A stretch of DNA of 64,000 nt, taken from contig CALXFG010000002.1 of the NCBI GenBank assembly GCA_944387505.1, positions 3,011-67,010 on the forward strand, written 5' to 3'. Made by a program: the position numbers and the translations under genes. The stretch is from an uncultured Clostridia bacterium. GTDB taxonomy: Bacteria > Bacillota > Clostridia > TANB77 > CAG-508. Positions 13,975 to 54,500 of the stretch are shown one piece after another; position 1 is the stretch's first letter, and each line of letters opens with the position of its first letter. Below the pieces are notes generated by a model, which saw only the letters and a list, made by a program, of their open reading frames with translations, did no database searches and was not told where the DNA came from.

Positions 13975-13977
13975 TCA

Positions 13978-14439: not shown

Positions 14440-14463
14440 GTACATTTATGTTTACTCAAATAT

Positions 14464-14492
14464 TTGCTTATATTCCCGTTTTATGGTATATT
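14464..14492 (+). promoter_or_regulatory. Putative promoter of small-ORF cassette 2
   Basis: TTGCTT, 17-nt spacer, TATATT, with an extended -10 TG (14484-14485). Confidence 0.4.
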
Positions 14493-14575
14493 ATTTTTAA
14501 TGCATAAAGCATTATTTTGTAACTAGCAATGGTAAGCTTGCTAAAACTTTTTCTTGTAATTAAAAGGAGAAAAAT

Positions 14576-14770: not shown

Positions 14771-14774
14771 AAAA

Positions 14775-14804
14775 AAAACAGATTCGCTTACCAATCTGTT
14801 TTTT
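14775..14804 (+). terminator. Rho-independent terminator, loop CGCTTACC
   Basis: AAAACAGATT-CGCTTACC-AATCTGTTTT followed by TT. Confidence 0.75.
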
Positions 14805-14809
14805 ATTAA

Positions 14810-14840
14810 TGTCGCATTAGGTTCGTTTGTCTATGCGACA
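14810..14840 (+). repeat. REP-like element, variant B
   Basis: TGTCGCATTAGGTTCGTTTGTCTATGCGACA. Confidence 0.85.
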
Positions 14841-14845
14841 TTCTC

Positions 14846-16556: not shown

Positions 16557-16620
16557 TGTCCCATAGAGTTCGTTTGTTGATGGGACATTTGTCCCATAGA
16601 CATCGTTTGTTGATGGGACA
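16557..16620 (+). repeat. REP-like element, variant C, 2 tandem copies (16557-16587 and 16590-16620)
   Basis: TGTCCCATAGAGTTCGTTTGTTGATGGGACA and TGTCCCATAGACATCGTTTGTTGATGGGACA. Confidence 0.9.
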
Positions 16621-20694: not shown

Positions 20695-20747
20695 GATCGT
20701 TTTTCTGTGGGACATTTGTCCCATTGAGATCGTTTTTCTGTGGGACA
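20685..20747 (+). repeat. REP-like element, 2 tandem copies (20685-20714 and 20717-20747)
   Basis: GTCCCATTGAGATCGTTTTTCTGTGGGACA occurs twice. The first copy contains the gerA-family stop codon (TGA 20692-20694). Confidence 0.9.
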
Positions 20748-23536: not shown

Positions 23537-23567
23537 TGTCGCATAGAGTTCGTTTGTTGATGGGACA
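23537..23567 (+). repeat. REP-like element with hybrid arms (TGTCGCAT...GATGGGACA)
   Basis: TGTCGCATAGAGTTCGTTTGTTGATGGGACA. The arms do not match: left CGC, right GGG. Confidence 0.8.
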
Positions 23568-27621: not shown

Positions 27622-27677
27622 TGTCCCATTGAGTTCGTTTGTCTATGGTCCCATTGAGATCGTTTGTCTATGCGACA
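27622..27677 (+). repeat. REP-like elements, two fused copies (27622-27648 truncated; 27649-27677 with hybrid arms)
   Basis: TGTCCCATTGAGTTCGTTTGTCTATGG followed directly by TCCCATTGAGATCGTTTGTCTATGCGACA. Confidence 0.85.
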
Positions 27678-28340: not shown

Positions 28341-28406
28341 TGTCGCATTAGGATCTGATCCCAATGCGACATTTTTGGGACAATTGGGATCAGATCCCAA
28401 TTGTCC
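28341..28406. repeat. REP-related palindromes: TGTCGCATTAGGATCTGATCCCAATGCGACA (28341-28371) and GGGACAATTGGGATCAGATCCCAATTGTCC (28377-28406)
   Basis: Read directly. They lie between convergent genes and are probably a bidirectional terminator. Confidence 0.85.
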
Positions 28407-30131: not shown

Positions 30132-30214
30132 TGTCCTATTGAGATCGTTTTGTCCCATTGAGTTCGTTTTTCAACGGGACATTAATCCCATTGAGTTCGT
30201 TTTTCAACGGGACA
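30132..30214 (+). repeat. REP-like array: one truncated plus two full copies
   Basis: TGTCCTATTGAGATCGTTT, then TGTCCCATTGAGTTCGTTTTTCAACGGGACA (30151-30181), then TCCCATTGAGTTCGTTTTTCAACGGGACA (30186-30214). Confidence 0.9.
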
Positions 30215-30402
30215 TTAATCATTTGTCACTTTTAATTGTACTTCTTTATTCAATAAATTTCCTCTTTCATTTTACTAAATTTTTCTTTTTTCTTCAACTA
30301 TTTCTTGTCATTTTTTGAAATTTTATATAGCTTTTTCTTACTGCTTAAGACTAATGAATCATAAATTTTTGATTAAGTGAAAACTTAATATTTTGACAAA
30401 AA

Positions 30403-30464
30403 CCCACAGAAAAACGATCTCTATGGGACAAAATGTCCCGCAGAAAAACGATCTCTATGGGACA
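30403..30464 (-). repeat. REP-like array, 2 copies in the opposite orientation
   Basis: CCCACAGAAAAACGATCTCTATGGGACA (30403-30430) and TGTCCCGCAGAAAAACGATCTCTATGGGACA (30434-30464). Confidence 0.9.
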
Positions 30465-35427: not shown

Positions 35428-35526
35428 TTGTCTTATTGAGATCGTTTTTGTCCTATTGAGATCGTTTTTCTGTGGGACATTTTGTCCTATTAAGATCGTT
35501 TTTCTGTGGGACATGTCTATGCGACA
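35428..35526 (+). repeat. REP-like array: two full copies (35449-35479 and 35483-35513) plus two partial copies
   Basis: TGTCCTATTGAGATCGTTTTTCTGTGGGACA and TGTCCTATTAAGATCGTTTTTCTGTGGGACA, flanked by truncated copies. Confidence 0.9.
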
Positions 35527-35527
35527 T

Positions 35528-38910: not shown

Positions 38911-40032
38911 TTATTTTAACCTCACTTCTTTTGCTTGTATCATGAATTTCTCAATTCGATCTTTAAATCTATCTTCTATCGGTTTTAAAGAAATTAGTTT
39001 CTTCGTTTTCATTACTAAAATTTTTTCTGAAATCAATTTATTTAGTTCTTTTTCTGTCATCTCTGGATTTAATTCTATAATTCTTTCAATCATAGCATCT
39101 GTTAATTCTTTTGCCATTTTCTTGTCTTCAATTGCTGATTTTGCCTTTCCTTTTAATGTATTACTATTGTCTGTCATTTTCAAAACAGAGTGTAGCAAAA
39201 ATATATCTTCATCTACTAATTCTTTTACGATACCTTTTTCTTCATACTCACTACTTTCATTAATCGTTTTATCACTTAATTCCATTTGTTCACTTAAATA
39301 GTTCCATAGTTTTACAGCATATTGAAAGTTTACATTTTTTAATAAAACATTTGTCATCTTTAATGGTGCTTTTACATATGTTGCTTTTTTGGCAACTAAG
39401 GTTTGATAAACCTCAGTTTGCTTTAACATTTTTATAGATTTTTCGATATCTGCTATTTTCTCAGATGTTTTTTCTGACTTTGTGATTTCTGTTGTTCTCT
39501 CAGAATGATATTCCAAATTCACATTAATTTTTTCTTTATTTAATTTAACTTCTGCTTCATAATTTGCTTTTTGGCGATTTTTGCCTTTATATTCCTCATC
39601 AGCCTCTTTTTTTCTTAAATACATGTAATCTTCAATCAATTTTATTAAAGTATACAAAAATCGATTTTCATAAGTCAGAAAAGTTTCTTCTTTATAGGCA
39701 TTTAAAATCTTTTTAGGTGTTACTTCTCCACTTTTTTGATTATATTTATCGACAAGATTGACATGTTTCGATAAATGTTTTACACTTTCTACTGTCACTT
39801 TCTTAATTAATTCTATCTTTATAATTTCTTCTTCTGTGACAATATTTTTTATTTCTTTTGTCAATGCTTTTTCTAAATATGGAATGGTAAATAAAACCAT
39901 GTCTATCCATTCATCATTCTCAACAAGATGACTTCTATCCACATCCATCATTAACTTTGAATCAATTTTACTAAGAAATTTAGTTGATTTTTCTTTTTCC
40001 ATATTCGCAAATTTCACAATATTTAAGTCCAT
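38911..40032 (-). CDS. Cytoplasmic hypothetical protein (373 aa), downstream partner of the McrB-like ATPase
   Basis: No TM segment. K/E-rich helical protein. It directly abuts the next gene (stop 38911, start 38910). No nuclease motif was recognised. Confidence 0.6.
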   Translation of the reverse strand: MDLNIVKFANMEKEKSTKFLSKIDSKLMMDVDRSHLVENDEWIDMVLFTIPYLEKALTKEIKNIVTEEEIIKIELIKKVTVESVKHLSKHVNLVDKYNQKSGEVTPKKILNAYKEETFLTYENRFLYTLIKLIEDYMYLRKKEADEEYKGKNRQKANYEAEVKLNKEKINVNLEYHSERTTEITKSEKTSEKIADIEKSIKMLKQTEVYQTLVAKKATYVKAPLKMTNVLLKNVNFQYAVKLWNYLSEQMELSDKTINESSEYEEKGIVKELVDEDIFLLHSVLKMTDNSNTLKGKAKSAIEDKKMAKELTDAMIERIIELNPEMTEKELNKLISEKILVMKTKKLISLKPIEDRFKDRIEKFMIQAKEVRLK

Positions 40033-40054
40033 TTTCTATCCTCCTGTCTCATTG

Positions 40055-40119
40055 TGTCCCATTGAGTTCGTTTGTCTATGGGACATTTTGTCCTATAGAG
40101 TTCGTTTGTCTATGGGACA
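40055..40119 (+). repeat. REP-like element, 2 tandem copies (40055-40085 and 40089-40119)
   Basis: TGTCCCATTGAGTTCGTTTGTCTATGGGACA and TGTCCTATAGAGTTCGTTTGTCTATGGGACA. Confidence 0.9.
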
Positions 40120-40120
40120 A

Positions 40121-40177
40121 GTCCGTCCTCAAAATCCCTCAAAAATGTCCCAAACAGAAACGTCCCCAATTGGACAC
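40121..40177 (+). repeat. Repeat family 2 copy (GTCCGTCCTCAAAATCCCTC) plus related GTCCC-containing words
   Basis: Two mismatches to the 23635 and 26009 copies. It is followed by TGTCCCAAACAGAAACGTCCCCAATTGGACAC. Confidence 0.6.
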
Positions 40178-40184
40178 TTTTTAT

Positions 40185-41738
40185 TTAAGACATCTTTTTA
40201 AGTCTTAATAAGAATTCTATACATTCGCCCATTTTTCCTTTTCCAAAGTTTTTGTCTAAGAAATCTATATATCCGTCGATTTCATCTCTAATTAATGTTA
40301 AGTTTAGTCCTTCAAATTTTCTTAATACTTTTTTTGCCATGAAATAGTCTACAGCTTCTGTTTCATCTCCACCACATGCTACATATACTGGTACAAATTT
40401 TTTCATGTGTTTTACAATACGGTTACCAAATGCAACTCTAAAGTGTTTGATGGTATAGTTATCCATATCTTCTATTTTTTTCAAAGTTGCTGGTGATATT
40501 GCATAGTCTACCATTGCTTTATCAAATAATCCATTTAAATATGAATAGTTTACATCAAGTGCATCAACATCATCTGCTTCAAATGCTACACCTTTTTCAT
40601 TGATATCGATTGGCATCGCTCTATCGTATACCTTATCTGTTACCATGAATGTTGAGTCGTCATTGTTGATGGTTCCGATATACCATGCATTAGGTGGAAT
40701 TTGTAATTTTCCTTTGATTAATTTCTTTGGATCTGTTGGCCATGAACTTTGTACAATTTCAATTTTCCAATCTTTTGTACTGTGCATTTCTAGAATAGAT
40801 AGCATTTCTGCAAAATAGTATTCCACACGAGCTAAGTTCATCTCGTCTAAGATAACTGTATAAATTTCATCCGTATATCCTGCTTCATATAAATATGCTA
40901 AGAAGTCTGTTTCATTAAATTTCTTAGTGAATTCATTTAAGTATCCAAATATATCTGTTCTATCTCTCCAAGATGGTTGTACAGATGCAACACATGATGG
41001 ATGTTTTACAAAGTTACCCCATGCAAGAGATATAGATGTTTTACCTGTACCAGAAATACCTTGTAAGATAACTAGTTTAGTTGATGCAATAGCTGATACA
41101 AATAACCTTATCATTTTTTCACTATAATATAATTTCAACTTGCTTGCAGCAAAATTTCTAAACATATAGCAAAACTCTGGTAATGTAAAGCTATTGTGAT
41201 AATCTTTTTGTTTATATTTTGCAAATTCTTCATCTATCATTGTTAATTTAGAGAATCTGCTTTGGCTATTTGGATCAATTTGTTCTTCATTATTTGCTTC
41301 TGATTGAGCAGCAGCAAGCGCAGCTTTATCCATACCTGTACTGATACCATTTGGATTAACACCTAATTCTGGTGACTTCATATTTAATAATTTTAATTTT
41401 TCGTCTACTAATTCTTCTACTTGTCCATTTAAGGTATCAATTTGTTTTAATAATTCTTCTTGATCTACAATCTTTTTCCTCCATTTCATATGTCTTTTCA
41501 AGAAAAAGATTAAAATTCCAACAATTCCTCCAATAACAATAAGCATGCAGATAATGGCTAATCCTGTTAAAAACCATTCTGAAACCTTAAAATCATTGGC
41601 ATAATTTTGGATAATTCCCCAATATCTTGGTATATTAAATATATTTACAATCCCATTCCAAAGTCCACCAAAAATATCTCCAAATCCAGAGAAAAATTGG
41701 CTTAAAAATTCAAATAAAAATCTTCCATATGTTTCCAT
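40185..41738 (-). CDS. Membrane-anchored McrB-family AAA+ (AAA_5) NTPase
   Basis: N-terminal TM segment (WFLTGLAIICMLIVIGGIVGILIFFL) plus a coiled coil. Walker A: LQGISGTGKTS. McrB-type Walker B signature: VILDEMNLARVEYYFAEMLSILE. Also YIGTINNDDSTFMVTDKVYDRAM (compare GTMNxxDRS...D.A..RR). Confidence 0.75.
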   Translation of the reverse strand: METYGRFLFEFLSQFFSGFGDIFGGLWNGIVNIFNIPRYWGIIQNYANDFKVSEWFLTGLAIICMLIVIGGIVGILIFFLKRHMKWRKKIVDQEELLKQIDTLNGQVEELVDEKLKLLNMKSPELGVNPNGISTGMDKAALAAAQSEANNEEQIDPNSQSRFSKLTMIDEEFAKYKQKDYHNSFTLPEFCYMFRNFAASKLKLYYSEKMIRLFVSAIASTKLVILQGISGTGKTSISLAWGNFVKHPSCVASVQPSWRDRTDIFGYLNEFTKKFNETDFLAYLYEAGYTDEIYTVILDEMNLARVEYYFAEMLSILEMHSTKDWKIEIVQSSWPTDPKKLIKGKLQIPPNAWYIGTINNDDSTFMVTDKVYDRAMPIDINEKGVAFEADDVDALDVNYSYLNGLFDKAMVDYAISPATLKKIEDMDNYTIKHFRVAFGNRIVKHMKKFVPVYVACGGDETEAVDYFMAKKVLRKFEGLNLTLIRDEIDGYIDFLDKNFGKGKMGECIEFLLRLKKMS

Positions 41739-41760
41739 GTTTTACTTCTCCTATTTTTTA

Positions 41761-41823
41761 TTCCCATTAAGTTCGTTTTTCTATGGGACATTTGTCCCGT
41801 TGAGATCGTTTTTCTATGGGACA
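41761..41823 (+). repeat. REP-like element, 2 tandem copies (41761-41790 and 41793-41823)
   Basis: TTCCCATTAAGTTCGTTTTTCTATGGGACA and TGTCCCGTTGAGATCGTTTTTCTATGGGACA. The second copy encodes the last codons and the stop of gene 41814-42863. Confidence 0.9.
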
Positions 41824-42863
41824 AATATTACGTTATTGAACATCTCTTTATTGCTTTTTATGTCTTTATATAATGACAATTTTTGAGGTACAATCACCAT
41901 TTTAAACATTTTTAATTGTTCCACATCTTCTATACTTTTTGCTTCATTATCTAATGTAATTGTAAAGTTGTAACCTTTTTTCGTGTATTCTAATACACTT
42001 TTTTGATTTTTTATATAGTCAGAATATAGAATATTTAAACTGATTTTATCTTGTAATTCTTGATTTCCAAGAATCGATAAAATACTATCTAATTTTTGTT
42101 TCTTTTTGAATAGTGTGCTTGTAAATTCTGCAATATATTTATCATTAAAATTTCCATTGATGATATCTGAAATGACAACAACACTTAATAATATATATTC
42201 TACTTGCAATTTATCTTCTGCTATAATTCCCTCATGATATACTTTTTCGATAGCAGTTTCGCTATATTGCATTGGCATTTTCACTTTCTGTTCTAGTGTA
42301 GCAAAATATATGTCATCTTTAGATTTGCAATTTTCAAATTGTAATACAAATTCATCTGTATCAAATTTTTCCAAAAATATTTCTTTTTCTAGCATATCAT
42401 TTTTGATTTCTTCATACAGTTTTTTTTCTGCACTTTGTGAAATTCCTGTCTGAAATAATTCATTTGCTGTTTGTATCATTTTACTAACAATTTCTTTTAT
42501 ATTATCAATCGTCTTAAAATTTTCTACATTTCTAACATTATCAAAAAATAAAATATATGCAAATAATTCTTTCAAATTGTGAATGGTATTTAATTTGCTT
42601 TGCTTTTCATTTAAGTTTTCAGATTCTTCTTCGCATTTTTTCATTAAAATATCTTCTTTATATTCTAGCTCTTCTAATATTCTTAAATAAAAAGCTCTTG
42701 CAGGCTTGTCTGCATTCTGAATATTATAATATCTAGCATTTATATATGTTTTTAAATATTCATCCACTAACTTTTCGTCATATTGTTTCGCCAATAATGT
42801 CTTCATATATTTTTTTATTTTCTTTTCTGTAAATGTTATATATGTATCCATTAAGTTGTTCAT
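41814..42863 (-). CDS. Cytoplasmic hypothetical protein (349 aa), upstream partner of the McrB-like ATPase
   Basis: RBS GGAGG. No TM segment and no recognisable motif. Confidence 0.6.
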   Translation of the reverse strand: MNNLMDTYITFTEKKIKKYMKTLLAKQYDEKLVDEYLKTYINARYYNIQNADKPARAFYLRILEELEYKEDILMKKCEEESENLNEKQSKLNTIHNLKELFAYILFFDNVRNVENFKTIDNIKEIVSKMIQTANELFQTGISQSAEKKLYEEIKNDMLEKEIFLEKFDTDEFVLQFENCKSKDDIYFATLEQKVKMPMQYSETAIEKVYHEGIIAEDKLQVEYILLSVVVISDIINGNFNDKYIAEFTSTLFKKKQKLDSILSILGNQELQDKISLNILYSDYIKNQKSVLEYTKKGYNFTITLDNEAKSIEDVEQLKMFKMVIVPQKLSLYKDIKSNKEMFNNVIFVP

Positions 42864-42875
42864 TTTTACCTCCTG

Positions 42876-42937
42876 TGTCCCATTGAGATCGTTTGTCTAT
42901 GGGACATTTCCCATTGAGATCGTTTTTCTATGGGACA
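42876..42937 (+). repeat. REP-like element, 2 tandem copies
   Basis: TGTCCCATTGAGATCGTTTGTCTATGGGACA (42876-42906) and TTCCCATTGAGATCGTTTTTCTATGGGACA (42908-42937). Confidence 0.9.
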
Positions 42938-42944
42938 TTTTGCC

Positions 42945-43529
42945 CTAAATGATTTGTTTAGCATCAATATCTAATTTTATATATTCTATCAAATCAGAAA
43001 ATTCTGCATTTGTATCATTTTCTTTTGGAAATGTTACTTTTATCACATAATTATCTGTCAAATCTTCTCCTTGTATCATTTGTGAAGGCTCTATCGATAT
43101 TTCTCTGTAATAAGTCCCATCTTCATCTGTGGTTATTTTTTGTTGTGTAGTTAAGATTTCGCCATTTTTTTCTATTGCATATTCTAATGGTAAATTGGTT
43201 GTTGTTGTTATGGTTAATGCATATTCCAAATCTGTTTCTGCTCTTTTATTGATTGTTCCATCTTCATCTGCCTCAAAATTTGATACGGAAAAAGAATAAT
43301 CAAATGAATTATTTGATGGATATATATCTTTTATAATCATATTTGCTGATTGAAAATCATCATGAAGCATCCAGAAAGCAACATCTACATCTTTTTCTGA
43401 CGTTGCTACTGTTTGATATCTTGATAATGTTCTTACTATAAAAATAATCGCAATAATGATAATTGCTATTAAAAAAAGTATAAGCATACTTTTTTTCAAT
43501 TTTTTCTTATCCAACATCTTTTTTCTCAC
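42945..43529 (-). CDS. Small N-terminally anchored/secreted beta-rich protein (194 aa). Paralog of the frameshifted gene 47251-48127.
   Basis: TM segment: MLILFLIAIIIIAIIFIVRTLSRYQTV. The DLEYALTITT motif is shared with DLEYQLSCET. It overlaps the upstream sipW by 23 nt. Confidence 0.65.
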   Translation of the reverse strand: MRKKMLDKKKLKKSMLILFLIAIIIIAIIFIVRTLSRYQTVATSEKDVDVAFWMLHDDFQSANMIIKDIYPSNNSFDYSFSVSNFEADEDGTINKRAETDLEYALTITTTTNLPLEYAIEKNGEILTTQQKITTDEDGTYYREISIEPSQMIQGEDLTDNYVIKVTFPKENDTNAEFSDLIEYIKLDIDAKQII

Positions 43530-44031
43530 CTATTTTTTCTTTATATGCTATCATCACTATAAATAATATAATGGTTATCACTAGTGGTATGATAACATGC
43601 ATATCTGTAAATACTTTTTTCCAAACTTCTACATGATTGATAATATACACTGCTTTACCTATCACTTGACTTTTTTCTATTGGCTCATCTTGAGTATTAT
43701 TATTATCTCCTTTTGTGATGATGGTATCTCCATCAATTTGTTCTATTCTATGTGTAATAAGTGCATTGTCCTGTTTGTATGTTATAATATCATTTTCCTT
43801 GATTTCATCACTTATTTTGATAATTATAATATCACCTATTTCAATGGTTGGTGACATACTTCCAGTTTCTGTACTAAGTATAGAATAGCCAAATATATTT
43901 ACATATTCTTTATTTTGAATATTTAATTGTATAAATCCCCATATGACAAGAATAGCAATGATACTTAATACTAAAATTATTAATTCTACTACAACTTTTT
44001 TAATAATGTTTAATACCTTATGTTGTTTCAT
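43507..44031 (-). CDS. sipW: SipW-type signal peptidase I (canonical boxes, no tail)
   Basis: STETGSMSPTIEIGDIIII, ALITHRIEQI, TKGDNNNTQDEP. N- and C-terminal TM segments. It overlaps both neighbouring genes. Confidence 0.8.
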   Translation of the reverse strand: MKQHKVLNIIKKVVVELIILVLSIIAILVIWGFIQLNIQNKEYVNIFGYSILSTETGSMSPTIEIGDIIIIKISDEIKENDIITYKQDNALITHRIEQIDGDTIITKGDNNNTQDEPIEKSQVIGKAVYIINHVEVWKKVFTDMHVIIPLVITIILFIVMIAYKEKIGEKKDVG

Positions 44032-44662
44032 TGCCTATCTCCTCTCCTGTATATTGTTTTAAATTAATTTCTAATGGAATGTTTATCTTTGCATTTTGTG
44101 TTTGACCTAATGCTGAATCTGCTTCATTATTTTCTTCTATATTTTCCCATTCAAAATATAATCTGATATGATTTAAATATTTGTCATTTATTCTTGCAAG
44201 AGGAATGATAGCCTCATGCATATTTGTTTCATTATTTGTATATACATCATCATTTGTAAATTGTTCTGTTTCATCAGTTTTTTGGAAATAATTTTCCACA
44301 TTCACTAACTTTAATTTTGCTGTTGTTACAGCATCTAATTTTATATTTAATGTATATAAAACAGATACATCTGTGGTTGTTGGATCGATAATAATTTCAA
44401 AATACGCCTGTGTCCCTGGTGCTATTTTTTGGCTTTTAACATGTTCAGAATCCAGATACACAAGATTGTCTTCTGTCATGTTAAAAGTCAAATTTTCATC
44501 ACCTGAAGATATGTCTGTTTCATTTACTTTAATTGACCATACACCTAATAGATTTGTATATTCTCCTTCTAATTGGTCTTTATATAAAGCATACATATTT
44601 GCTATTTCAAATAAGGTTATAATTAACATTATTAATACTAAAATTCTTAATAATTTTTTCAT
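44018..44662 (-). CDS. TasA/camelysin-like secreted protein (214 aa). Paralog of 37287-38027.
   Basis: Signal: LRILVLIMLIITLFEIANMYALYKDQ. Shared motifs: IAPGTQAYFEIIIDPTTTDVSVLY, IRLYFEWENIEE, INLKQY. Confidence 0.7.
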   Translation of the reverse strand: MKKLLRILVLIMLIITLFEIANMYALYKDQLEGEYTNLLGVWSIKVNETDISSGDENLTFNMTEDNLVYLDSEHVKSQKIAPGTQAYFEIIIDPTTTDVSVLYTLNIKLDAVTTAKLKLVNVENYFQKTDETEQFTNDDVYTNNETNMHEAIIPLARINDKYLNHIRLYFEWENIEENNEADSALGQTQNAKINIPLEINLKQYTGEEIGNETT

Positions 44663-45556
44663 TTATTCTTCCTCTTTTGATTTTGTAGTTCTTGGCTTAC
44701 GAGTTGTTGTTGTAGCTTTAGCTGTTGTTTTTCTTGTTGTACCTGTTTTTCTCGCTGTACTAGCTTTTGAAGTTGTTCCTGCTTTTTTTGTAGTACTTGT
44801 TTTCCTCGTTGTACTAGCCTTAGAACCTGCACTTGTCTTTGAACCTGCTCTTGTTCTTGTGCTTGTACTTGCTCTAGTTGTGGTTTTTGGACTTGATTTT
44901 TTCGTTGTTGTTCTGGTAGTTTTCTTTGGCCTTACAACAACCTCTTCCTCTTCGTAGACCTCATCCTCATCCTCGTCATATTCATCATCATCGTACTCTT
45001 CCTCTTCTTCTGCTTCTACTTCTAGTGCTTGTTTTTTCTTTTGCTTATTAAGATATTTGATTTCCATTACTAATTCAAATACTTCTTGTAAGAATAGTAA
45101 TAATGATACTACTACGATACAGAATAAGTATCCCCATCTAGATTCTAGTAGGCTTAATATATATCCCCATCCTTCTATAACAATTGTGTCATCTACTTTT
45201 CCGATAAAGTAATCATTTGCATAACTTTCTTCATTATCTACAACATATACCGTATGGGTTCCTTGTTGTGTTTTTGCTTGTAAAGTTGTGGTAATAACTT
45301 CATATTCTGAGCTATTTAATACTTTATACATGAATATTTTGTCTCCAACTTGTACATTTCTATCATTTGTTTCTTTTATTAATAGTATAGAACCTTGTTT
45401 ATATTCAGGCTCTAAAGAGTCATCATTAACTATATAAACCGTATAATCTCCAATTACACTATTATTATAATCATTATATGATAATAGTAATACTGTAACT
45501 GTAATAGCAATAATAGCATATAATACAAATAATATAGTTCCTAGTACTTTTTTCAT
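44663..45556 (-). CDS. SipW-like paralog with degenerate catalytic boxes and an acidic plus T/K/R/S-rich C-terminal tail. Probable pseudo-peptidase.
   Basis: The Ser box reads NDDSLEPEYKQGSILLI. There is no xHRx box at the homologous position (VITTTLQ) and no KGDNN box. After the C-terminal TM segment come EVEAEEEEEYDDDEYDEDEDE and KKTTRTTTKKSSPKTTTRASTSTRTRAGSK... Confidence 0.65.
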   Translation of the reverse strand: MKKVLGTILFVLYAIIAITVTVLLLSYNDYNNSVIGDYTVYIVNDDSLEPEYKQGSILLIKETNDRNVQVGDKIFMYKVLNSSEYEVITTTLQAKTQQGTHTVYVVDNEESYANDYFIGKVDDTIVIEGWGYILSLLESRWGYLFCIVVVSLLLFLQEVFELVMEIKYLNKQKKKQALEVEAEEEEEYDDDEYDEDEDEVYEEEEVVVRPKKTTRTTTKKSSPKTTTRASTSTRTRAGSKTSAGSKASTTRKTSTTKKAGTTSKASTARKTGTTRKTTAKATTTTRKPRTTKSKEEE

Positions 45557-45616: not shown

Positions 45617-46054
45617 TTATTGTGTTATTGGTTGTAGTTGTATTGATTGTGTACCTGTTAAATTTCCTTTTAATACAACACTGATGTCATATTGTTCTCC
45701 AACAGCTAAACTTTGTATCCAAGTTTGCATTTGTCCTAATACTTCTCCATCAGCACCAACCAAAATGGCATTTAAACTTTCATTTTCTACTGGATTATCT
45801 GTTGTGTTTAATATAGACATAGATACCATTGTTTCATCTTGACTATCTAAATATTCCATTGATACATTTGTTACTTCCATACTTTTATAGCTTGTATCTG
45901 GTAAAGCAACTACTGTTTGTTGTGGCTCCTCTTGTGTTTTATCTTTATTAACATTTCTAACTATTAAAACAACAGCAACAACTACTATAATAATCGCGAT
46001 AATTGCAATTAATAGTATTCCCAACATTTTTTTACCTTTTCTTACTTTTCTCAT
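45617..46054 (-). CDS. N-terminally anchored small beta-rich extracytoplasmic protein (145 aa, hypothetical)
   Basis: RBS GGAGGAG. TM segment: MLGILLIAIIAIIIVVVAVVLIV. Confidence 0.6.
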   Translation of the reverse strand: MRKVRKGKKMLGILLIAIIAIIIVVVAVVLIVRNVNKDKTQEEPQQTVVALPDTSYKSMEVTNVSMEYLDSQDETMVSMSILNTTDNPVENESLNAILVGADGEVLGQMQTWIQSLAVGEQYDISVVLKGNLTGTQSIQLQPITQ

Positions 46055-46149
46055 ATTCTCCTCCTTCTTTTCTACATTTTTTTATACTTTTCTACTATAT
46101 TTTATACCATAACTTTTTTTTAAAGTCTATACTTTTCCGAAAACTTTTT

Positions 46150-46272
46150 TGTCGCATTAGGTTCATTTGTCAATGTCCCGTTGAGATCGTTTTTCTGTGG
46201 GACATTTTCTCCCGTTGAGATCGTTTTTCTGCGGGACATTTTCTCCCGTTGAGATCGTTTTTCTATGGGACA
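46150..46272 (+). repeat. REP-like array of 4 copies (1 variant-B fragment plus 3 at a 35-nt period), abutting the RAYT stop codon
   Basis: TGTCGCATTAGGTTCATTTGTCAA, then TGTCCCGTTGAGATCGTTTTTCTGTGGGACA (46174-46204), TCCCGTTGAGATCGTTTTTCTGCGGGACA (46210-46238) and TCCCGTTGAGATCGTTTTTCTATGGGACA (46244-46272). Confidence 0.92.
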
Positions 46273-47046
46273 TTAACTTTGCATTGCTTTTTCTACTATT
46301 TTTCTATTAATTCCTAATACTCTTGATATTTGTGCTTTTGAGGTTCCTTTAATAATTTTTAATTCCTTCAATTTTGCATCTCTTGTATCTTTATCATACA
46401 TGCGAAATAGTCTCACGTTTTTTATTTTTAAAATCTGCTGGATTTTTTCTTTTACCTGTTCGTCTGTAATTTTATAGGCAAATTCATATTCTACTTCTTC
46501 ATTTATTAGATTTTCTTTACGACTATGATATATGATAAAATTTTTTATTGCTTCTTTTTTTGTTTGACCAAACATGGATAAAATAGGATTTGGATTTATA
46601 ATTTTAGAATTAAATAAAAACTCTTTATAACTGCTCCATTGATAATCTTCAGTTCTTGCAATATTCGCTTTTAATGGATTTTGATGAATATATCTACATA
46701 ATGTATACAAATATTCTCTAGTTTCAACACTTTTACTTAAAAATCTACCTTGAAATAAATGACCTTCTTTTTTATATTTTTTAGCAAAATATAATGAATA
46801 TGATATTGCCAAACTTTGCATTATTTTTGATAATACATCTTGACGATCAAAAATAATTATATGTACATGGTTGGTCATTAAACAATATTCATATATTTCG
46901 CAATGGTATTTCTCTTTTATTATCTTAAGTATTTTTAAAAACTTGCAATAATCTTGATGATCATAAAAAATATCTTGCTTATCATTTCCTCGTAGCATGA
47001 CATGATATATCTTTGTCATACTACCTTTTCTTATTTTATAGGGCAT
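46273..47046 (-). CDS. REP-associated tyrosine transposase (RAYT; IS200/IS605-type Y1 HUH transposase family) with a C-terminal HTH extension
   Basis: HUH motif: CLMTNHVHIIIF. Catalytic-Tyr motif: LCRYIHQNPLKANIA (RAYT-type YxxxNP). YHVMLRGN at the N-terminus. C-terminal HTH-like segment: GTSKAQISRVLGINRKIVEKA. RBS AAGGAGAG. Confidence 0.85.
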   Translation of the reverse strand: MPYKIRKGSMTKIYHVMLRGNDKQDIFYDHQDYCKFLKILKIIKEKYHCEIYEYCLMTNHVHIIIFDRQDVLSKIMQSLAISYSLYFAKKYKKEGHLFQGRFLSKSVETREYLYTLCRYIHQNPLKANIARTEDYQWSSYKEFLFNSKIINPNPILSMFGQTKKEAIKNFIIYHSRKENLINEEVEYEFAYKITDEQVKEKIQQILKIKNVRLFRMYDKDTRDAKLKELKIIKGTSKAQISRVLGINRKIVEKAMQS

Positions 47047-47170
47047 TTGCGTCTCTCCTTACTATATTTTTTTATTTTCCCCTATTTGCCCCCTAAAGTA
47101 TAGACAGTATAGCATATTTCTTTTCATTTTGCCATACTTTTCAATTAATTTGCTTAAATTTTTCAAAAAA

Positions 47171-47245
47171 GTCCCACAGAAAAACGATCTCAATGGGACA
47201 CACAAATGTCCCACAGAAAAACGATCTCAATGGGACATTGCGACA
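47171..47245 (-). repeat. REP-like array, 2 copies in reverse orientation plus a variant-B arm fragment
   Basis: GTCCCACAGAAAAACGATCTCAATGGGACA (47171-47200), TGTCCCACAGAAAAACGATCTCAATGGGACA (47207-47237), then TTGCGACA. Confidence 0.92.
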
Positions 47246-47250
47246 AATGA

Positions 47251-48127
47251 TTATTCATCATTTACAGTAATAACAGAAGTTGCATCACCCAATGGATAGG
47301 TATAATCTTGAGACATATCTACTTTATAAAATTTAATATTTTTAGCAGATTCCTTATCCATTGTAAAAGTAAATTTTTCTACATATCCATCACCATTTAC
47401 TTCTTCACTGCCTTCTACTCTATTTAGATAAGCTTCATCATTTAAGTCTATTCTTACAACATTTGGATTAAATTGTAATGAAACATTGCCTCCTGTTTCA
47501 TGGATATTTACCATTTTCAAAATCAAATAGTTCCTATTTGCAACATCTTCTATTTCATAACTATTGGCTAAAACTTGTTGTATTCTTAATGAAATCTCAC
47601 AAGAAATTTCTTTCTGATATGGTTCTTGTGTACTAGCTTTTATTCTTATCGTAATAATATCGTTTTGCTCTATTTGCGTTTTTGGTGTTACCACAATCTT
47701 GATTCTGCTAACATTATTAGCAGTGTCTCCATTTTTTGCATATATGATTCCTGTTGTTTCTGTAGGTCCACCAGCTTCATTGATTCCGCAATGTTACTTT
47801 ATCTGTATCTGGTGTTTCACACGAAAGTTGATATTCTAAGTCATAATCTAATCTTAATAATGTATTTTGATAACTATATAAATCAAAATTGATTTCATAA
47901 TTGTCTACACCACCCCAATTTTCATATTGGTATGTTGCATTATCAAGCGTTAATAAATCACTTGTAAAGTAAAATGCTTTTGAAGTGAAATAGGCTTCTC
48001 TTGCTTGGAAATATACATATCTACCAAATACTGAAAATGTAATGACTAGTATTAATAAAATAAACAGCAATATGATTTTTTTGATTCTTTTTTCTTTTTT
48101 TCTAATTCTTGCATGTTTTCTTTCCAT
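47251..48127 (-). pseudogene. N-terminally anchored beta-rich protein split by a +1 frame change near 47775-47795. Either a frameshifted gene or two ORFs. Paralog of 42945-43529.
   Basis: ORF 47777-48127 ends ...DKVTLRNQ*. The frame of ORF 47251-47694 is open upstream to ...HCGINEAGGPTETTGIIYAKNGDTANNVSRIKIVVTPKTQ..., overlapping the first ORF's end. There is no ATG or RBS for the second part (the track start is an internal GTG). Confidence 0.55.
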
Positions 48128-48444: not shown

Positions 48445-48523
48445 TGTCCCATCAACAAACGAACTCAATGGGAGGAATGTCCCATCAACAAACGAACTCA
48501 ATGGGACAAATGGGACAGGACAC
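48445..48523 (-). repeat. REP-like array (variant C, reverse orientation), 2 copies plus a fragment, immediately after the giant gene's stop
   Basis: TGTCCCATCAACAAACGAACTCAATGGGA (48445-48473), TGTCCCATCAACAAACGAACTCAATGGGACA (48478-48508), then AATGGGACAGGACAC. Confidence 0.9.
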
Positions 48524-48524
48524 A

Positions 48525-51500
48525 TTAAGGAACTACGATGAATGATTTTCTGATGGTTTGTATTAATGTATTGTTGTAGTATGCCTTAAATACAATTTTA
48601 TACTCACCTGTACTGATGCCTTCTTTTATTGCCTTTTTGAATTCAATGTTCTCAATGTTTTCTCCTTCTGTTACTGTTGGATGTTGTTTTTTCTCCATGA
48701 TGACATATTCTTTACATCCATCTGCTGTTACTAAGCCTTGTCCTTCATAGTCTTCTGGTGTTTTCCATTCTGTACCATCTAGATTTTCCAAATAGTCTTT
48801 TAGGTCTACTGGTGTATATTCTATTGGATTATAACTACTTGTTCCATCTTCTGCTGATGTATATGTATCATTTCGTTTATACAATTCTACTCTTATATTT
48901 GTTTCATCTGTAGGTGATCCGACTTTTACATTTAAGTCTAAGCCGTCTCCTCCAACAAGGTTCATACGAGTTGTTTTATTAATAATTCTACTTCCATCAA
49001 CTGATTCTACTCCTGCTAGTCCTAATAGTTTATTAATAAATGTGATACGAATTTCTTGTTCTTGTTTTACTTCTCCTCCATAATGTGATCCATCATCTGA
49101 TGCGAAGAAGTAAATTTTTGCAATATATACACCGGCTGGTACACTGTTTTGGCTTAGTGCTAATTGATATTGATTTTGTATTGTAGATAATCCTGCTGAT
49201 AATGGAATTCTGATAACACCATCTGCGCCAACTCCATAAACGGTTGATGTTGTTTGATCAATGACTCTTAAGTTTTGGACTGCTGGTGCTTTGATTCTTT
49301 CTCCATGTTCATCTACAATTTCAACTGCCATACCTGTATATTTATCATAATATTTTGTATCTTTAATTGTTTCTCCCTCACTAGTTGTTTGTTCTATTAT
49401 GCTTGCATTAAATGTGAATGGAATTGCTAAATTATTATATACAGAATATGCTGTTTTACCATCGTTTGTTGTAACGGTTTCTGTCATAATAGCATTTTTG
49501 TTATACAAGTCATAAACAATTTGTGTGTCTCCATTATCATATTTAACTGCTCCTGATTGATTTCTCAACTCTAAGTAGGTTTCTTGTCCTAATTGATCTG
49601 CACTTATGTTAGAATCTTTGAAATCGATTGAAACATCATATTTCTCTAATGCATATCCAAAGTTTGGCTCAATATCATGATAATATAGACTATTATTATT
49701 TGCATATTTATCTGTTGTAGCTGTTCCACCCATTTCTACAAAGTCAGATAAGTTGTATAAGTATCTTGTTGTTCCAGATGTATTATCTGTTGCATCATAA
49801 TCGGTATCACTTGCTACTTGATAATAATATACTTTGTTTAGATTATCACCTTGTCCATAATCTCTTATGGTAATTCCTGTACCTTGTGGTAAAGGCATAG
49901 TGGTTGATAATACTCTATAATCTCCATTTGCATAGAAGTCTGATTGCCCACCATGTACTTCTTTGTACAATACATAAGTGATATCTACTTGGCTATCTGT
50001 TGTGTAGCTTAATTTTGTCTTACTACTATTTGTAAATGTTGGAATATAGTTTTCTATATTTGGTGTTTGTTCTGTTTGAAGATTTACTGCAATCACTACT
50101 TTAAAGGTATTTCCCATGCTTGCATCTTCACCTGATTTGGCTTTTCCAGTTAAGACAATATTGACATATCCTAAATCTTTTGTTTCAGAGATATTTACAG
50201 AACTAAATATCTTGAATAGTAAGGTTCCTGCTGTATTTGAATTGTCTGTCTTAAATACGGTATCTCCATCAAATGAACCATCTCCATCTGTATAGATGTT
50301 TGTTTCACCTGATTGTTGCCATCCAGAATTTGATGTTTGCATTGTTAATCCAAATGTGTTATTTGCATTTTCACTATAAATTGGTATTTGTAGTTTGTTA
50401 ATCAAGTTAACATCTGTATTTAATGCATTTGAGGTAATTCTATCAACGCTAAATGTTGTACCATTATATATTGCATTATCCACAAATGAATTGAAATCTA
50501 ATGTTAATTCTGCTGTTGATTCTGTTCCAAATATAGATGCAATGACTTGTGTATTATAGTTTACAATTTGTGCTCCTACAATCCAATCATAATAAGTTCC
50601 ATAGTCTGTTACTTCTATCACTTGTGGTGTCGCTGTGGTTGAACCATCACTTACCACATTTGTATAGAAGCCATCTACTGTTATATCATGATTTGATTTA
50701 TGTCTTCCTTCTATGTAGGTACCTGCTGCAAACATATTGGTTGTTGCTGCTCCTGCATAATCTGGTGCATAGATATCATATTCTTTATTTCCTGTAGTTC
50801 TATTATGTCTATACATTCCAAAGAATGCCATACCATTAACATCTCCCCAAATATCTTCGCTATTTCTATCGCTTAAATCTCCTTCTGCTTTTGCAAAGAT
50901 TAGGTTGACACCTTCAAAGGTATATATTCTGTTATCAACATTTCTTGTTACTGATCCATCGGCAATTGTTGCTGTTTCTTTTGTCGTACTTCCATCAGCA
51001 TTTGTTAATAAGCTTTCAAATCCTCCAACCATATTAAATCCGCGCTGTGTATATAGGGTTGTATTATTTTGTAAAGCTAATCCATTGGTAATTCTATTTA
51101 ATGTATAACTTGTTTTTTGATAGTAATTATTTTTATCTTGTGCACCAATTAACTCTAAATATGAATTATCAATTGTAACTTTACCAGTGCGTTCGATTGA
51201 AGTCATTGTATAACTTTGTGATGAAGTTCCAAAGTCTTTTATCATGACTGTTGATTTATCTGTTCCATCACTTGCTGTTGATGAATAGGTTGCATCTTTT
51301 CCAGCTCCGAAGATTCTTCCACTAAATGTGATTGGAGATTCTGTACTATTATCCATTAAGATATGTGTTTCTCCATAAACACTGACTGTATTGTAATCTT
51401 CGTTATCTGAATCGCCTGAACCATAAATGTTTCCATTGATAACAATATTTCCAGCTGTGAATGATTGATCGGTTACTGCATCTTTACCAATGTTGATATT

Positions 51501-54500
51501 GGTTGTTCCATAAACCGTTGAATTCTTTGAACCTCCATTGATGTCATTCTTGATTGTTCCACCTGTTATGTTGATGGTTGTAGAACCGACTGCATTATTT
51601 CTTCCAATGTCAGTTCCAAGTCCTCCACCATAAAGTTCTCCATTTATAGTTGCATTTCCTTTAATATTGATAGTTGTATTTCTTGTAATACCTTTGATTT
51701 TGTTTCCACCATAGATGTTTTGTGCAGTTGTTCCTTCAATGTTGATGGTTGCATTTGTAGTTTCTCCACCATCACCTGTTCCACCTTGGTTTCCACCAAA
51801 GATGTTGGTTACAGTTGCTCCATTTTGTGTCACATTTGCATTGGTTACACCTACATCATATCCTCCACCAAATACATTGTTTACGGTTCCAGAGTTTAAT
51901 TGTACATTTGTATTTGTTGTAACTCCTGCATTTTTAGAACCACCAAAGATTGTGTCAATTGTAATACCGTCTAAATTTACATTGGCTGTTCCGACTCCTG
52001 CACTATTACCACCGCCAAATACATTTGTTACATTTCCCATACTTAAGTTAACATTTGATGTTCCAACTGTTCCATTTGTGTTTGAACCTCCATAGATGTT
52101 GGTTACATTTGCTGTACCACTCTCTTCATCTCCTAAGTAAATGTTGGCTGTTGTGGTTGTTCCACCATAACCTCCACCATACACATCTGTTACCGTTCCG
52201 GTTACTAGATAGATATTTGAAGTTGTGACTGTTCCATCACCTTTTGAACCACCATAAATGGTACCTGCTGTCATTCCAACTAAGCTAATATTTACCTGAT
52301 TTGTAATTCCAGCCCCGTCTGATCCACCATAAATAGTTGGTGCAGTTGTACAATAGTTTAATTGAATATCAACCGTTCCTACTCTGTCATAAATTCCGCT
52401 ACCATAGATAGTTCCATTTATCGTTGGTTTAACAGTATCATCACCATAATAATTTCCTATGATAATCTGGACATCTTGGTTTGATGTATCTGCATTTAGT
52501 TGTGCTTGTGTGGTTAAATGATTTCCACCATAAATGTCATTAACAATTCCACCTAATATTTGAATTAGTGCTTCTTCTCTAACTTGATTTTGGTAAGCAC
52601 CACCATAAATGGTTCCCATAACTTGTCCATTATCGATTGTTATCGTACTACTTGTAGTGATTTCTCCAGTTGCATTATTGGTTACACCACAGTTATTACC
52701 TCCACCATAGATATCTCCTGTAATAATTGCTCCATTGTTTAATACAATATTCGTATTACCTGTAATTAATCCTGTATTTAGATTAATGTTTGTTCCATCA
52801 ATTACACCATTGCTTCCACCATAAATGTTTCCATTTACAGTTATCGCACTGTTAACATTTATATAGGTACTTCCTGTTACTTTTCCTTGTGCGGTTGTTG
52901 TTGCATTTGAACCACCATAAATATTTCCGGTTATCTGTAAAGCTCCTTGAAGATTAATGCTTGCACTTCCTGTTGAAGTATCATTTCCACCATGTCCAAA
53001 TACATTACCATTGATTTGACCACCGTAGAAGTATAATCTATTGGCCAATGGTTCTTCTTCAGTACTTGAATCCTTCGTCGTTGCCATTCTAGCGCCACCA
53101 TAGATATTGCCTGTGATATTTCCACCATACATATCTAATTGTGATACACCATCATTAAATCCATTGATTGATCTTAAATACATTACTGCATCTTCAGAAG
53201 CTCTATGGAATTTATTTTCACCTGTAAAGGTTCCACTCAAGATGGTCGTCACTGCATAATTTCTACTATAACCTGATGTAGTATCTTGTGCACCATTAGC
53301 ATTATATGGATAACATCTGTCTTCAAGTTCTCCCATTGCTAAATATCCTGTTATCTCTAATTTGTCATTTCTAGCAATCGCAGATTCTTTCATGGTACCA
53401 ATAATGACTTCATGAGAAACATATTTTTCCTTTGATGTTTGTCCAGCAAAATCCAAACTACTTCCTGCAATAATGTCATTATACTTACCTGCTTCTACAA
53501 TCACTCTGTGATTTCCGATAGTGCCTGTTGTTTCTTCCTCTTTATAGTTACCTCCAACAACACTTCCGAAAGTATACTTACCTTCTGGTGTTGAGATTCC
53601 TCTTCCAAGAGTTACATCTCCGTAGTTGGTAATTAAGATATTTGAATAATTGCCTGTTGCTAAGTAATCACTACCATCACTAACATTTGTAGAATCTGCA
53701 TATAATTTGATATTATCAAATGTGATGTCACCTTGTACATCCATATTAGATGAAACTTTTAGTTCTGCACCACTTGTTCTGTAATCTACACCTGCATATA
53801 AGCTTGTGATTGTAGCATTTCCTACTAATCTTTCACTACTGTTCCATTCGATAGCATCCATAATAACAATCATGTTATTTGTTGCATTTCCTGAAGCATT
53901 TAGTTTGCTATATGCAGTAGTTAAATTTTGAACTGGTGTTGTAGGTGATAAACCATTATTTGTGTTATTTCCATTGCTAGATACGAATATGACAGTTGCT
54001 TCTTGCCATACAGCTCTTAAGTTGGTTACTGTGTTTGGAATATCTGTATATAGGTCATAAACCTTACCATTTTCGAGAGCAACACCTCTTTCATCTGCCT
54101 CTGCCCATCCTGCAAAGCTATATGCAGTTTGTTCACCATTTTCGTATTTGAATGGTTCTGCAAATAAGTTGTTATCTCCGTTACCATAGATTTCTCCAAT
54201 TGAACTTGCTCTATATACGCTGCTTCCTTCATTTGTACCACTTGATGTTACATTCATTAACTCATGTACATAGCTTTGATGCATTTGTTCAAAATCAGGT
54301 GTTACATGATAGGTTACATTTGTATAATTTTCTGTATTACTACTAATTGCTGATTTAGAGAAACTAATCGTTGTTGCATTACTGTAATTATCAAATTCAT
54401 CTACTAATGTATCTTTTGCAATTACTAATGAATAGGTTCCGATTTCTGTTAGACCTGTTACATCAATTTGGTAAGTTTTTGAAATTTCATTTGCATCTTC

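Follow-up and report, generated by a model that had tools for sequence, protein, structure and literature searches.

A RAYT-type transposase gene between inverted arrays of hairpin repeats in an uncultured Clostridia bacterium

The gene, its flanking arrays and the REPs of the window

Repetitive extragenic palindromic (REP) sequences and the tyrosine transposases associated with them (REP-associated tyrosine transposases, RAYTs) form the textbook example of transposase domestication in prokaryotes. Here, we describe a RAYT-type gene that lies between inverted arrays of a hairpin-forming REP element in a 64,000-nt stretch of DNA from an uncultured Clostridia bacterium (TANB77; CAG-508), taken from contig CALXFG010000002.1 of assembly GCA_944387505.1 (positions 3,011–67,010 of the forward strand). 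This whole stretch is referred to as the window, and coordinates are those of the window. The gene and the arrays next to it comprise the following features:

46151–46174, − strand: truncated older REP of the GTCGC type (positions 6–29 of the unit), adjoining the outer end of the downstream array
46175–46271, − strand: three full REPs (46243–46271, 46209–46237 and 46175–46203), starting one base after the stop codon
46273–47046, − strand: RAYT-type Y1/HUH transposase gene encoding 257 aa, with the HUH histidines H60/H62, Tyr119, WSSY at 137–140, and a helical C-terminal domain with an end resembling a helix-turn-helix (HTH)
47106–47135, − strand: promoter-like site (ATGGCA-18-TATACT, its −10 extended by TG) in the interval from the upstream REPs to the ATG
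47171–47236, + strand: two perfect REPs (47171–47199 and 47208–47236) in the orientation opposite to that of the 3′ array, on the 5′ side at 124 nt from the ATG
47237–47244, + strand: 3′-terminal remnant of an older GTCGC-type REP (ATTGCGAC), adjoining the outer end of the upstream array

The nearest 3′ REP ends at 46271 and the stop codon occupies 46273–46275, which leaves one base between them. The gene is thereby enclosed by REP arrays of opposite orientation, the geometry by which RAYT genes are recognised, and both outer ends of this cassette are flanked by 3′-terminal remnants of GTCGC-type REPs. The initial annotation of the locus had listed four REP copies on the 3′ side and two reverse-complement copies about 125 nt 5′ of the gene. 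The upstream pair was recovered as two perfect copies at 124 nt from the ATG; on the 3′ side three of the four are full units, and the fourth (46151–46174) is real but truncated.

The REP is a 29-nt hairpin unit (GTCCCAYAGAAAAACGATCTCAAYGGGAS on the gene strand) that reads (AAT)GTCCCA, a 17-nt loop and TGGGAC(A). In the extended unit, AAT-GTCSCA-loop-TGSGAC-A, the flanking positions A2, T3 and A33 are ≥90% conserved, and the 5′ flank is AATG in ~90% of the copies. The tetranucleotide GTAG was not found 5′ of the hairpin in the REP copies examined. As single-stranded DNA the unit folds into a 6–7-bp stem, and the folding z-score of a doublet was −5.8. The consensus matched 18 times in the window at ≤3 mismatches (0.00 expected, 100 shuffles) and looser patterns recovered 29–31 full copies; the figure of more than 35 copies given in the initial annotation is reached when the ~10 further truncated copies that adjoin the arrays are included. 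The REP density was ~0.45 copies/kb, or ~9% of the intergenic DNA in a window whose non-coding share is 15%. Twenty-nine copies were assigned to 17 sites, 27 of them essentially in non-coding DNA, and ~17 of the ~45 gaps in the window hold REPs. Apart from the arrays at the RAYT gene, the sites are:

13742–13807, − strand: REP doublet with the same sequence as the copies upstream of the RAYT gene
13979–14007, − strand: single GTCGC-type REP, the type that dominates in the sister species
14811–14839, − strand: single GTCGC-type REP
16558–16619, − strand: REP doublet of the TCAAC loop subtype
20685–20746, − strand: REP doublet identical to the master sequence, between + strand gerA-family genes
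23538–23566, − strand: single hybrid REP (GTCCCA...TGCGAC)
27623–27676, − strand: one full hybrid REP with an adjoining truncated copy
30133–30213, − strand: REP doublet with an adjoining truncated copy (30133–30151)
30401–30463, + strand: REP doublet, inverted relative to 30133–30213 across a 187-nt gene-less spacer
35430–35527, − strand: two full REPs nested in an older loop-split REP (left part 35514–35527, right part 35430–35449)
40056–40118, − strand: REP doublet, in a gap whose orthologue is empty in one sister species
40147–40175, + strand: 29-nt REP of a second, related family with loop GGGGACGTTTCT; over the 24 nt of its core (40147–40170) it is identical to a repeat at locus L101
41761–41822, − strand: REP doublet
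42877–42936, − strand: REP doublet
48446–48507, + strand: REP doublet, with 1, 2 or 3 copies across samples of the window species

Same-strand doublets or triplets with a start-to-start spacing of 31–37 nt make up 11 of the 17 sites, and 23 of the 29 copies share one sense on the − strand. The organisation is not that of bacterial interspersed mosaic elements (BIMEs) or REPINs: apart from the gene cassette, the sole inverted arrangement is the one at 30133–30463. The doublets there point outward around the 187-nt spacer, which is the geometry of the RAYT cassette minus the gene; the spacer itself showed no similarity to the RAYT locus by tblastn or blastn.

Other identities of the repeats were considered and rejected. 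No terminator-like site was found in the scanned region 45900–47400, which argues against REPs as intrinsic terminators, and a CRISPR-like array is incompatible with spacers of only 2–8 nt, with only 2–3 units per site and with the lack of cas genes nearby. A flank shared by two arrays (AATAATCATTTGTC) remained within chance expectation, with three matches, a number reached in 3 of 100 shuffles. At gathering thresholds, Rfam families had no match anywhere in the window, and the REP corresponds to no curated RNA family. Two scans of JGI metagenome contigs with degenerate REP patterns returned no match and one short match, respectively. A third palindrome family was observed at 28345–28400, with a GTCGCA/TGCGAC stem and the self-complementary loop GGATCTGATCC, beside a related GGGACAATTGGGATCAGATCCCAATTGTCC palindrome. 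It also occurs in intergenic gaps of the sister-species loci L091 and L094, and several copies are present in the sister species.

The RAYT protein

The Pfam family Y1_Tnp (PF01797) matched residues 13–123 of the RAYT protein (E 9e-16). In a conservation set of 98 homologues with 50–92% identity, H60, H62, Y119, N123-P124 and W137-S138-S139-Y140 were invariant (98/98). The two histidines are those of NHVHIII, which the initial annotation had pointed out among the Y1/HUH motifs, and the tyrosine is that of RYIHQNP. The stretch Y119-I-H-Q-N123-P124 carries the Y---NP signature of class 2 (TnpA-REP-like) Y1 proteins (PMC6006769). Further features described for RAYTs are the motif NP(L/V)(R/K)xG beside the tyrosine and an N-terminal threonine that is conserved (Nunvar 2010). 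The NPLKAN of the RAYT protein fits this motif at five of six positions, and several homologues do have the glycine (NPVKAG). T11, a candidate for the threonine of Nunvar, is conserved in ≥90% of the 98 homologues.

The NCBIfam model REP_Tyr_transpos (NF047646) scored 62.2 bits, which is below its equivalog cut-off of 80, and transpos_IS200 reached 18.3 bits where its cut-off is 55. From the alignment of the 98 sequences, AlphaFold gave a model with a mean pLDDT of 91.8, and its top fold match in the PDB was the E. coli TnpA-REP with a REP hairpin (4ER8; E 1.4e-6, TM-score 0.71 on the target). The two structures superpose with a root-mean-square deviation of 2.7 Å over 147 columns at 15% sequence identity. 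The transposases of ISDra2, IS200 and IS608 ranked after 4ER8 (Foldseek E 1e-6 to 1e-4 for 4ER8, 2XMA and 2VJV). A sequence search of the PDB with the family profile returned 4ER8 as the sole match, which was marginal (E 0.12). On the choice between a RAYT and an IS200 TnpA, which the initial annotation had proposed as a check, both the profile scores (62 vs 18 bits) and the best fold match (4ER8) come down on the RAYT side.

In the model, approximately residues 140–257 form a helical domain that closes with three short helices (219–231, 237–244 and 248–256). Together with weak HTH_23 matches in 14 of the 98 homologues (best E 0.0012), these predicted helices make the C-terminal HTH proposed in the initial annotation plausible, short of proof: a PDB search with a profile of the C-terminal domain gave nothing meaningful, and a fold search with a model made for this domain alone (pLDDT 81) gave nothing significant (E ≥ 1.1). 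The better-superposing matches included DnaA domain IV (E 1.4–1.7) and small HTH domains, and are to be taken as a weak resemblance only.

The ATGCTATACT core of the promoter-like site is kept in homologues of 51–65% identity (flanks L011, L013 and L105). The 5′ leaders of the RAYT gene in a sister species contain tandem repeats of ~18–19 nt (GCAAATATTGAATAGSTG-like) between promoter and start codon (L094 ~9810–9960, L095 ~9760–9960). By eye, the leader in L095 has about three more tandem copies than those in L094 and L096, and the leader of the window gene retains only a short AGGGGGCAAATAGGGG remnant of these repeats.

Vertical inheritance and co-change of gene and REPs

The identical RAYT protein was found on at least 23 metagenome contigs and had the same neighbours at 10 of the 10 places listed. 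The flanks with their REPs were identical in 10 samples, save for one sample with a partial duplication of 16 nt and another in which 2 nt were changed. Three sister species possess syntenic orthologues (P0002, P0005 and P0008 with 86%, 85% and 79% identity, respectively), each of which is located between the same small genes, downstream of a giant DUF285 gene and upstream of an S24-peptidase/DUF2357 string. Pairwise dN/dS ratios (nonsynonymous over synonymous divergence) among the orthologues were 0.14–0.24 at dS 0.34–0.49, which indicates that they are under purifying selection. Neither a second RAYT copy nor a decayed remnant of one was detected in the window by tblastn and blastn. The single context, the synteny with purifying selection and the absence of a second copy in the window therefore form the pattern of a domesticated gene and not that of an insertion sequence (IS). 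Copy number and the orientation of the flanking REPs, on which the initial annotation had made its proposal depend, thus both favour it, as the window holds one gene copy, the identical protein was met in one context at the 10 places listed, and the REP-gene-REP layout is kept within the species and at the three syntenic loci of the sister species. A homologue with 66% identity is fixed at another locus, upstream of radA-disA, in 4 of the 4 places listed from 22 contigs; radA is absent from the window. The genome of the window species may hold a second RAYT paralogue outside the window.

At the syntenic loci of the sister species (L091, L094 and L098, 20 kb each), the RAYT gene again lies between inverted REP arrays, with 2–3 copies upstream and 1–3 copies downstream, and the downstream arrays begin 1–2 bases after the stop codon. 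The REP of these species is GTCGCA...TGCGAC with the loop TAGACAAACGAACYYAA, and it occupies both gene flanks as well as dispersed sites. The stem has accordingly undergone a compensatory change between the window species (GTCCCA/TGGGAC) and the sisters (GTCGCA/TGCGAC). Among 50 distinct REP copies from the four species, stem pair 7:29 was C:G in 24, G:C in 15 and U:A in 2 copies, and the 7-bp stem was paired in 92% of the cells compared to 20–47% when the partner was slid by 1–3 columns. The loop core AAACGA was invariant. Within the 20 kb of synteny, all REPs of the window species are of the GTCCC type and all those of the sisters are of the GTCGC and GTCTC types, often in the same gaps.

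Three orthologous gaps were compared base by base between the window and L091, L094 and L098, with the following content:

Gap from the 517-aa gene to the DUF2357 gene: window, doublet and second-family copy; L091, one copy and a third-family palindrome; L094, empty (18-nt spacer); L098, one copy
Two other gaps, window: two full copies each
Two other gaps, L091: a single full copy in each, accompanied by truncated or third-family units; in one gap the pair is inverted
Two other gaps, L094: two full copies each, in one gap plus a third-family unit
Two other gaps, L098: one and two full copies plus truncated copies

Turnover was also evident within the window species. The site at 48446–48507 holds 1, 2 or 3 copies among samples, a count in which short-read assemblies can err for tandem units, and six REPs at three distant loci (13742/13779, 20685/20718 and 47171/47208) do not differ at any of the 29 nt. 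The ends of full copies are precise (G1 and C29), and these copies often adjoin truncated older ones. At the nested site 35430–35527, ATGTCGCATAGACA is followed by two full GTCCC units and then by AAAAACGATCTCAATAAGAC, and the older unit is split in its loop. In L098, a full unit parts positions 1–18 and 10–29 of another unit and leaves a 9-nt duplication in the loop. Junctions of a full with a truncated unit were found at 46151–46174, 47237–47244, 27623–27647 and 30133–30151, after 40056 and after 48507. The break points of the truncations (5/6, 6, 10, 10/11, 11, 14, 18, 20/21, 21/22 and 22) define no single site. We read these structures as evidence that new REP units were joined into or beside resident REPs, a view drawn from the junction sequences, for which hairpin-driven deletion or slippage is an alternative. 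The proposal of the initial annotation that the system is active or recently active is supported by the identical distant copies, by gaps with 0, 1 or 2 copies, by the site with 1–3 copies among samples and by the nested and truncated copies, and REP occupancy and copy number do vary between species and samples, a comparison that had been suggested there.

The co-occurrence of the gene with inverted hairpins extends far beyond these species. A wider set comprised 80 loci of GTDB representative genomes with 34–65% identity, from Clostridia, Syntrophomonadaceae, Peptococcaceae, Bacillaceae and others. In most of the ~65 Bacillota relatives with enough flanking sequence, hairpins in inverted orientation enclose the gene, with stems that vary and loops that are conserved, and a hairpin or inverted repeat is located 35–80 nt upstream and 0–25 nt downstream of it. 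Each lineage has its own stem, and the core GGGGACG(G)TTCT is conserved and, in the upstream copy, is always on the coding strand. This core appears to be the GGGGWSAS motif described for TIRYT flanks (PMC3733652). The loop core of the window REPs, AAACGAWC (its reverse complement being GWTCGTTT), is a divergent version of the GGGGACGKTTCT loop motif that flanks the homologous genes across Bacillota. The window REP ATTGAGATCGTTTTTCTGTGGGACA aligns with ATTGGGGACGTTTCTTTTTGGACA of a 65%-identical homologue, and the species that carries the 66%-identical homologue has a palindromic intermediate of 29 nt, GTCCCATTGGGGACGTTTCTGTTTGGGAC. Dispersed copies are found in relatives, too, with 11 in 6.7 kb in L016 (doublets spaced 32–34 nt) and 12 in 6.7 kb in L082.

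The second-family REP of the window (40147–40175, GTCCCAAACAGAAACGTCCCCAATTGGAC) differs from the palindromic intermediate at one stem base. Its 24-nt core, 40147–40170, exactly matches a dispersed repeat in L101, the locus next to radA at which another species carries the 66%-identical RAYT. In that species, almost identical variants of this family are present at the other loci and also flank the gene. Many homologues are known only from contigs of ~1 kb, and the one of these that was inspected, L105, a 994-bp Logan contig, starts and ends exactly in the flanking repeats; a practical side of the REPs is that they probably break metagenome assemblies.

Known relatives, mode of action and alternatives

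The flanks of TIRYT genes (TIRtrons) were described as non-palindromic terminal inverted repeats (TIRs) and their families as at most "moderately abundant" (Di Nocera 2013, PMC3733652). Subclass 2.1 comprises long proteins with a C-terminus similar to Bac_DnaA_C, HTH_23 or HTH_28 and with a conserved serine motif after the core; its authors equated it with TIRYT and reported no REP-like sequences near its genes (Quentin 2018, PMC6006769). RAYT Group 1 was noted in Clostridia, with flanking 16-mers that had only ~12 occurrences (Bertels 2017, PMC5581495). With its length of 257 aa, the invariant WSSY serine motif and the helical C-terminal domain with its HTH-type extension, the RAYT protein is tentatively assigned to the TIRYT/subclass 2.1 type (especially 2.1.2) by common features, and this type probably overlaps RAYT Group 1. 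With its score below the NCBIfam equivalog cut-off (62 < 80), the protein is not a canonical RAYT of groups 2 or 3. Low copy number and inverted flanking repeats with a GGGGWSAS-like motif are possible further likenesses to TIRYTs: the flanks of relatives carry GGGGACGG or GGGGACAG, and the window REP TGGGACAT fits six of the eight positions. In contrast to the TIRYT descriptions, the flanks in the window are true hairpin REPs at ~0.45 copies/kb, with stem covariation and turnover between species. The locus thus shows that the long HTH-bearing branch, treated in PMC3733652 and PMC6006769 as TIR-bearing or REP-less, can own a true hairpin REP population.

The REPtrons of groups 2 and 3 (E. coli, Pseudomonas and Stenotrophomonas) resemble the system in the Y1/HUH gene with the Y---NP and NP(L/V)(R/K)x motifs (a single copy here within the window only), in inverted flanking hairpin repeats that are abundant in extragenic DNA, in vertical inheritance and gene-REP co-evolution, and in the best fold match, 4ER8. 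The RAYT protein differs from them by only 15% identity in the fold alignment and a score below the equivalog cut-off, and by ~110 extra C-terminal residues with the HTH-like end. Its REPs have AATG instead of GTAG on the 5′ side and a family-conserved element in the loop, and they form same-strand tandem doublets whereas REPtrons form BIMEs or REPINs of alternating orientation; moreover, the host is a Firmicute. The REPs lack GTAG and have a conserved element in the loop, and recognition must therefore differ from that of canonical RAYTs. With TnpA of IS200/IS605 elements (IS608, ISDra2) the RAYT protein shares the HUH/Y1 fold and, probably, small hairpin substrates and a single-strand mode of action on the lagging strand. 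The ends of these elements are on one strand and the elements are multi-copy and horizontally mobile, whereas the window gene is fixed and syntenic, with inverted hairpins; no tnpB was found among its neighbours.

Taken on its sequence, the REP-RAYT system is real, recently active and not an IS200 element. The REPtron kind is already known, and so is the protein class (TIRYT, subclass 2.1 and probably RAYT Group 1) from genome surveys; the literature searched yielded no account of a REP-RAYT system from Clostridia or Bacillota. What appears to be new is the high-density population of true hairpin REPs owned by the TIRYT/subclass 2.1 class, the same-strand REP arrays without GTAG, the rule of a conserved loop on a variable stem across Bacillota, and the series of four species in which the stem switched in a compensatory manner and nested copies occur. 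The locus carries the "domesticated transposase" system of REP and RAYT into a protein class and a phylum with few descriptions. The four syntenic species form a natural series of differing REP alleles with compensatory stem change, one empty gap and nested insertions, which makes REP recognition without GTAG, the role of the HTH domain and the turnover of REP populations testable.

The host fits the low-GC Firmicute proposed in the initial annotation. The GC content of the window is 31%, its genes include those for GerA and GerAC spore germination proteins, RNase R, lactate dehydrogenase and TypA/BipA, and the nearest relatives of the RAYT gene among GTDB representative genomes are metagenome-assembled genomes of uncultured Clostridia. 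The window is core chromosome of a spore-forming Firmicute of the gut. GC skew is negative throughout on the + strand and most genes are on the − strand; because of this skew and gene orientation, the − strand is taken to be the lagging-strand template. The doublet at 20685–20746, located between + strand genes, keeps the sense related to replication and not to transcription, a hint that comes from one doublet.

The most probable explanation, to which we give a probability of approximately 0.75, is that the locus holds a domesticated single-locus RAYT, i.e., a long HTH-bearing class 2 TnpA-Y1 of the TIRYT/2.1 type, together with the REP family that this RAYT maintains. Binding to REP hairpins in single-stranded DNA, with cleavage next to them, is described for the TnpA-REP proteins of E. 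coli, S. maltophilia and Marinomonas (PMC8266576), and IS608 and ISDra2 are described as working on the lagging-strand template (PMC6006769). By analogy, the RAYT protein, made from its own conserved promoter, would recognise the hairpin of the REP in single-stranded form. The lagging-strand template, on which 23 of the 29 copies have the same sense, is the most likely place for this, and the protein would cleave at the hairpin borders by means of the HUH motif and Tyr119. The cut REP unit could then be rejoined at another single-stranded site, often beside or inside a resident REP, and such events would build up the same-strand tandem arrays in intergenic gaps. The C-terminal HTH-like domain would probably add binding of double-stranded DNA for targeting or autoregulation. 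The sequences themselves show the catalytic motifs and fold, the conserved layout of gene and REPs, the covariation of the stem, vertical descent under purifying selection, and the abundance and turnover of REPs; catalysis, recognition of single strands, the strand used and the role of the protein in moving the REPs are inferred.

Several points weigh against this explanation. To our knowledge, all biochemistry and nearly all population genetics come from GTAG-tagged REPs of Proteobacteria. The counts of gene and REP copies cover the 64-kb window and the 20-kb sister loci, that is, parts of the genomes. The protein stays under the NCBIfam RAYT equivalog cut-off (62 < 80), and the second REP family in the window hints at a second RAYT paralogue that possibly acts on the REPs. 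The co-orientation of REPs with genes fits selection on mRNA equally well, changes in array size could come from slippage or recombination without a transposase, and short-read metagenome assemblies can miscount tandem REP copies. Finally, recognition by canonical RAYTs depends on the GTAG tag (PMC8266576), which is missing from these REPs.

Alternatively, the REPs could be structural elements selected by the host, such as mRNA 3′-end protectors, attenuators or protein-binding sites, that spread and become homogenised by recombination, gene conversion or slippage, with the Y1 gene as a mere binder or as a passenger between two gaps that both happen to be occupied. Most REPs do lie directly after stop codons in co-oriented gene strings and in mRNA sense, the changes in copy number affect tandem arrays that are prone to slippage, and at the occupancy of gaps seen in the window, two occupied neighbouring gaps are not rare. 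However, chance adjacency cannot explain why the geometry recurs in most distant Bacillota relatives with stems of their own, and the inverted flanking arrangement also recurs at a different chromosomal locus for the 66%-identical homologue. The loop motif is conserved along with the protein family, and the scanned locus contains no terminator-like sites. A host function of the REPs would be compatible with their mobilisation by the RAYT as well, and we regard this alternative as unlikely.

A somewhat less likely alternative makes the Y1-HTH protein a host DNA-processing factor that acts at hairpins, for example at stalled forks or in the control of recombination or replication, without disseminating REPs. 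The long vertical inheritance under purifying selection and the own conserved promoter would suit such a factor, as would a DnaA-domain-IV-like C-terminus, which is discussed as a possible replication link (PMC6006769) and to which the fold resemblance here is weak. This alternative leaves unexplained the species-specific replacement of REP types at orthologous gaps, the identical distant copies and the nested copies with precise ends, all of which need some copying mechanism. It is highly unlikely that the hairpins and the gene are an autonomous IS200/IS605-like IS or "TIRtron" that moves as a unit, with the REPs as decayed solo ends: the Y1 transposase fold, the older-REP remnants at both outer ends (readable as a 1.06-kb block inserted into one REP) and the 66%-identical homologue at another locus are outweighed by the single context of the identical protein (10/10 places listed), the synteny over dS 0.34–0.49 with purifying selection, the inverted hairpins where IS200/IS605 ends are on one strand, the absence of tnpB with a transpos_IS200 score of 18 bits against 55, and the great excess of REPs over the gene.

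A domesticated RAYT with its own REP family could also be part of something wider. It is possible, and we suggest it tentatively, that the HTH-bearing Y1 family (TIRYT/2.1) runs a distinct REP system across Bacillota that combines loop reading, a single-hairpin unit, targeting of resident REPs and population replacement. In such a system the enzyme may read the loop that is conserved in the family (GGGGACGKTTCT or derivatives of it), presented by a stem that covaries freely, comparable to rolling-circle Rep proteins at origins, and the mobile unit may be a single hairpin with precise ends. New copies may prefer the exposed loop or the 3′ arm of resident REPs, which would give rise to nested and truncated copies and to same-strand arrays, and whole REP populations may be replaced within single species. 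If so, the window would be the highest-density example among the loci examined.

Some further features of the window were noted. The giant open reading frame (ORF) at 48525–63983 encodes >5152 aa with DUF285/BspA-like repeats, runs past the window end (7952 aa on the longer contig L001) and contains no REP. An unannotated gene string at 38911–45556 is conserved and syntenic in all four species and may be an operon for secreted or fibre proteins; its members include an S24/S26 signal-peptidase-like gene (43507–44031), a T/K-rich low-complexity protein (44663–45556) and the DUF2357 protein (38911–40032). In the region 13808–14845, a tandem repeat with a period of ~23 nt (ATTCCAACTATTATTCAATTC-like) occupies ~13909–13975. 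Two paralogous small ORFs (14186–14381 and 14577–14770) both start with MES[VI]GLITK and have similar leaders, each with its own terminator-like hairpin, and the pair is bracketed by the GTCGC-type REPs at 13979 and 14811.

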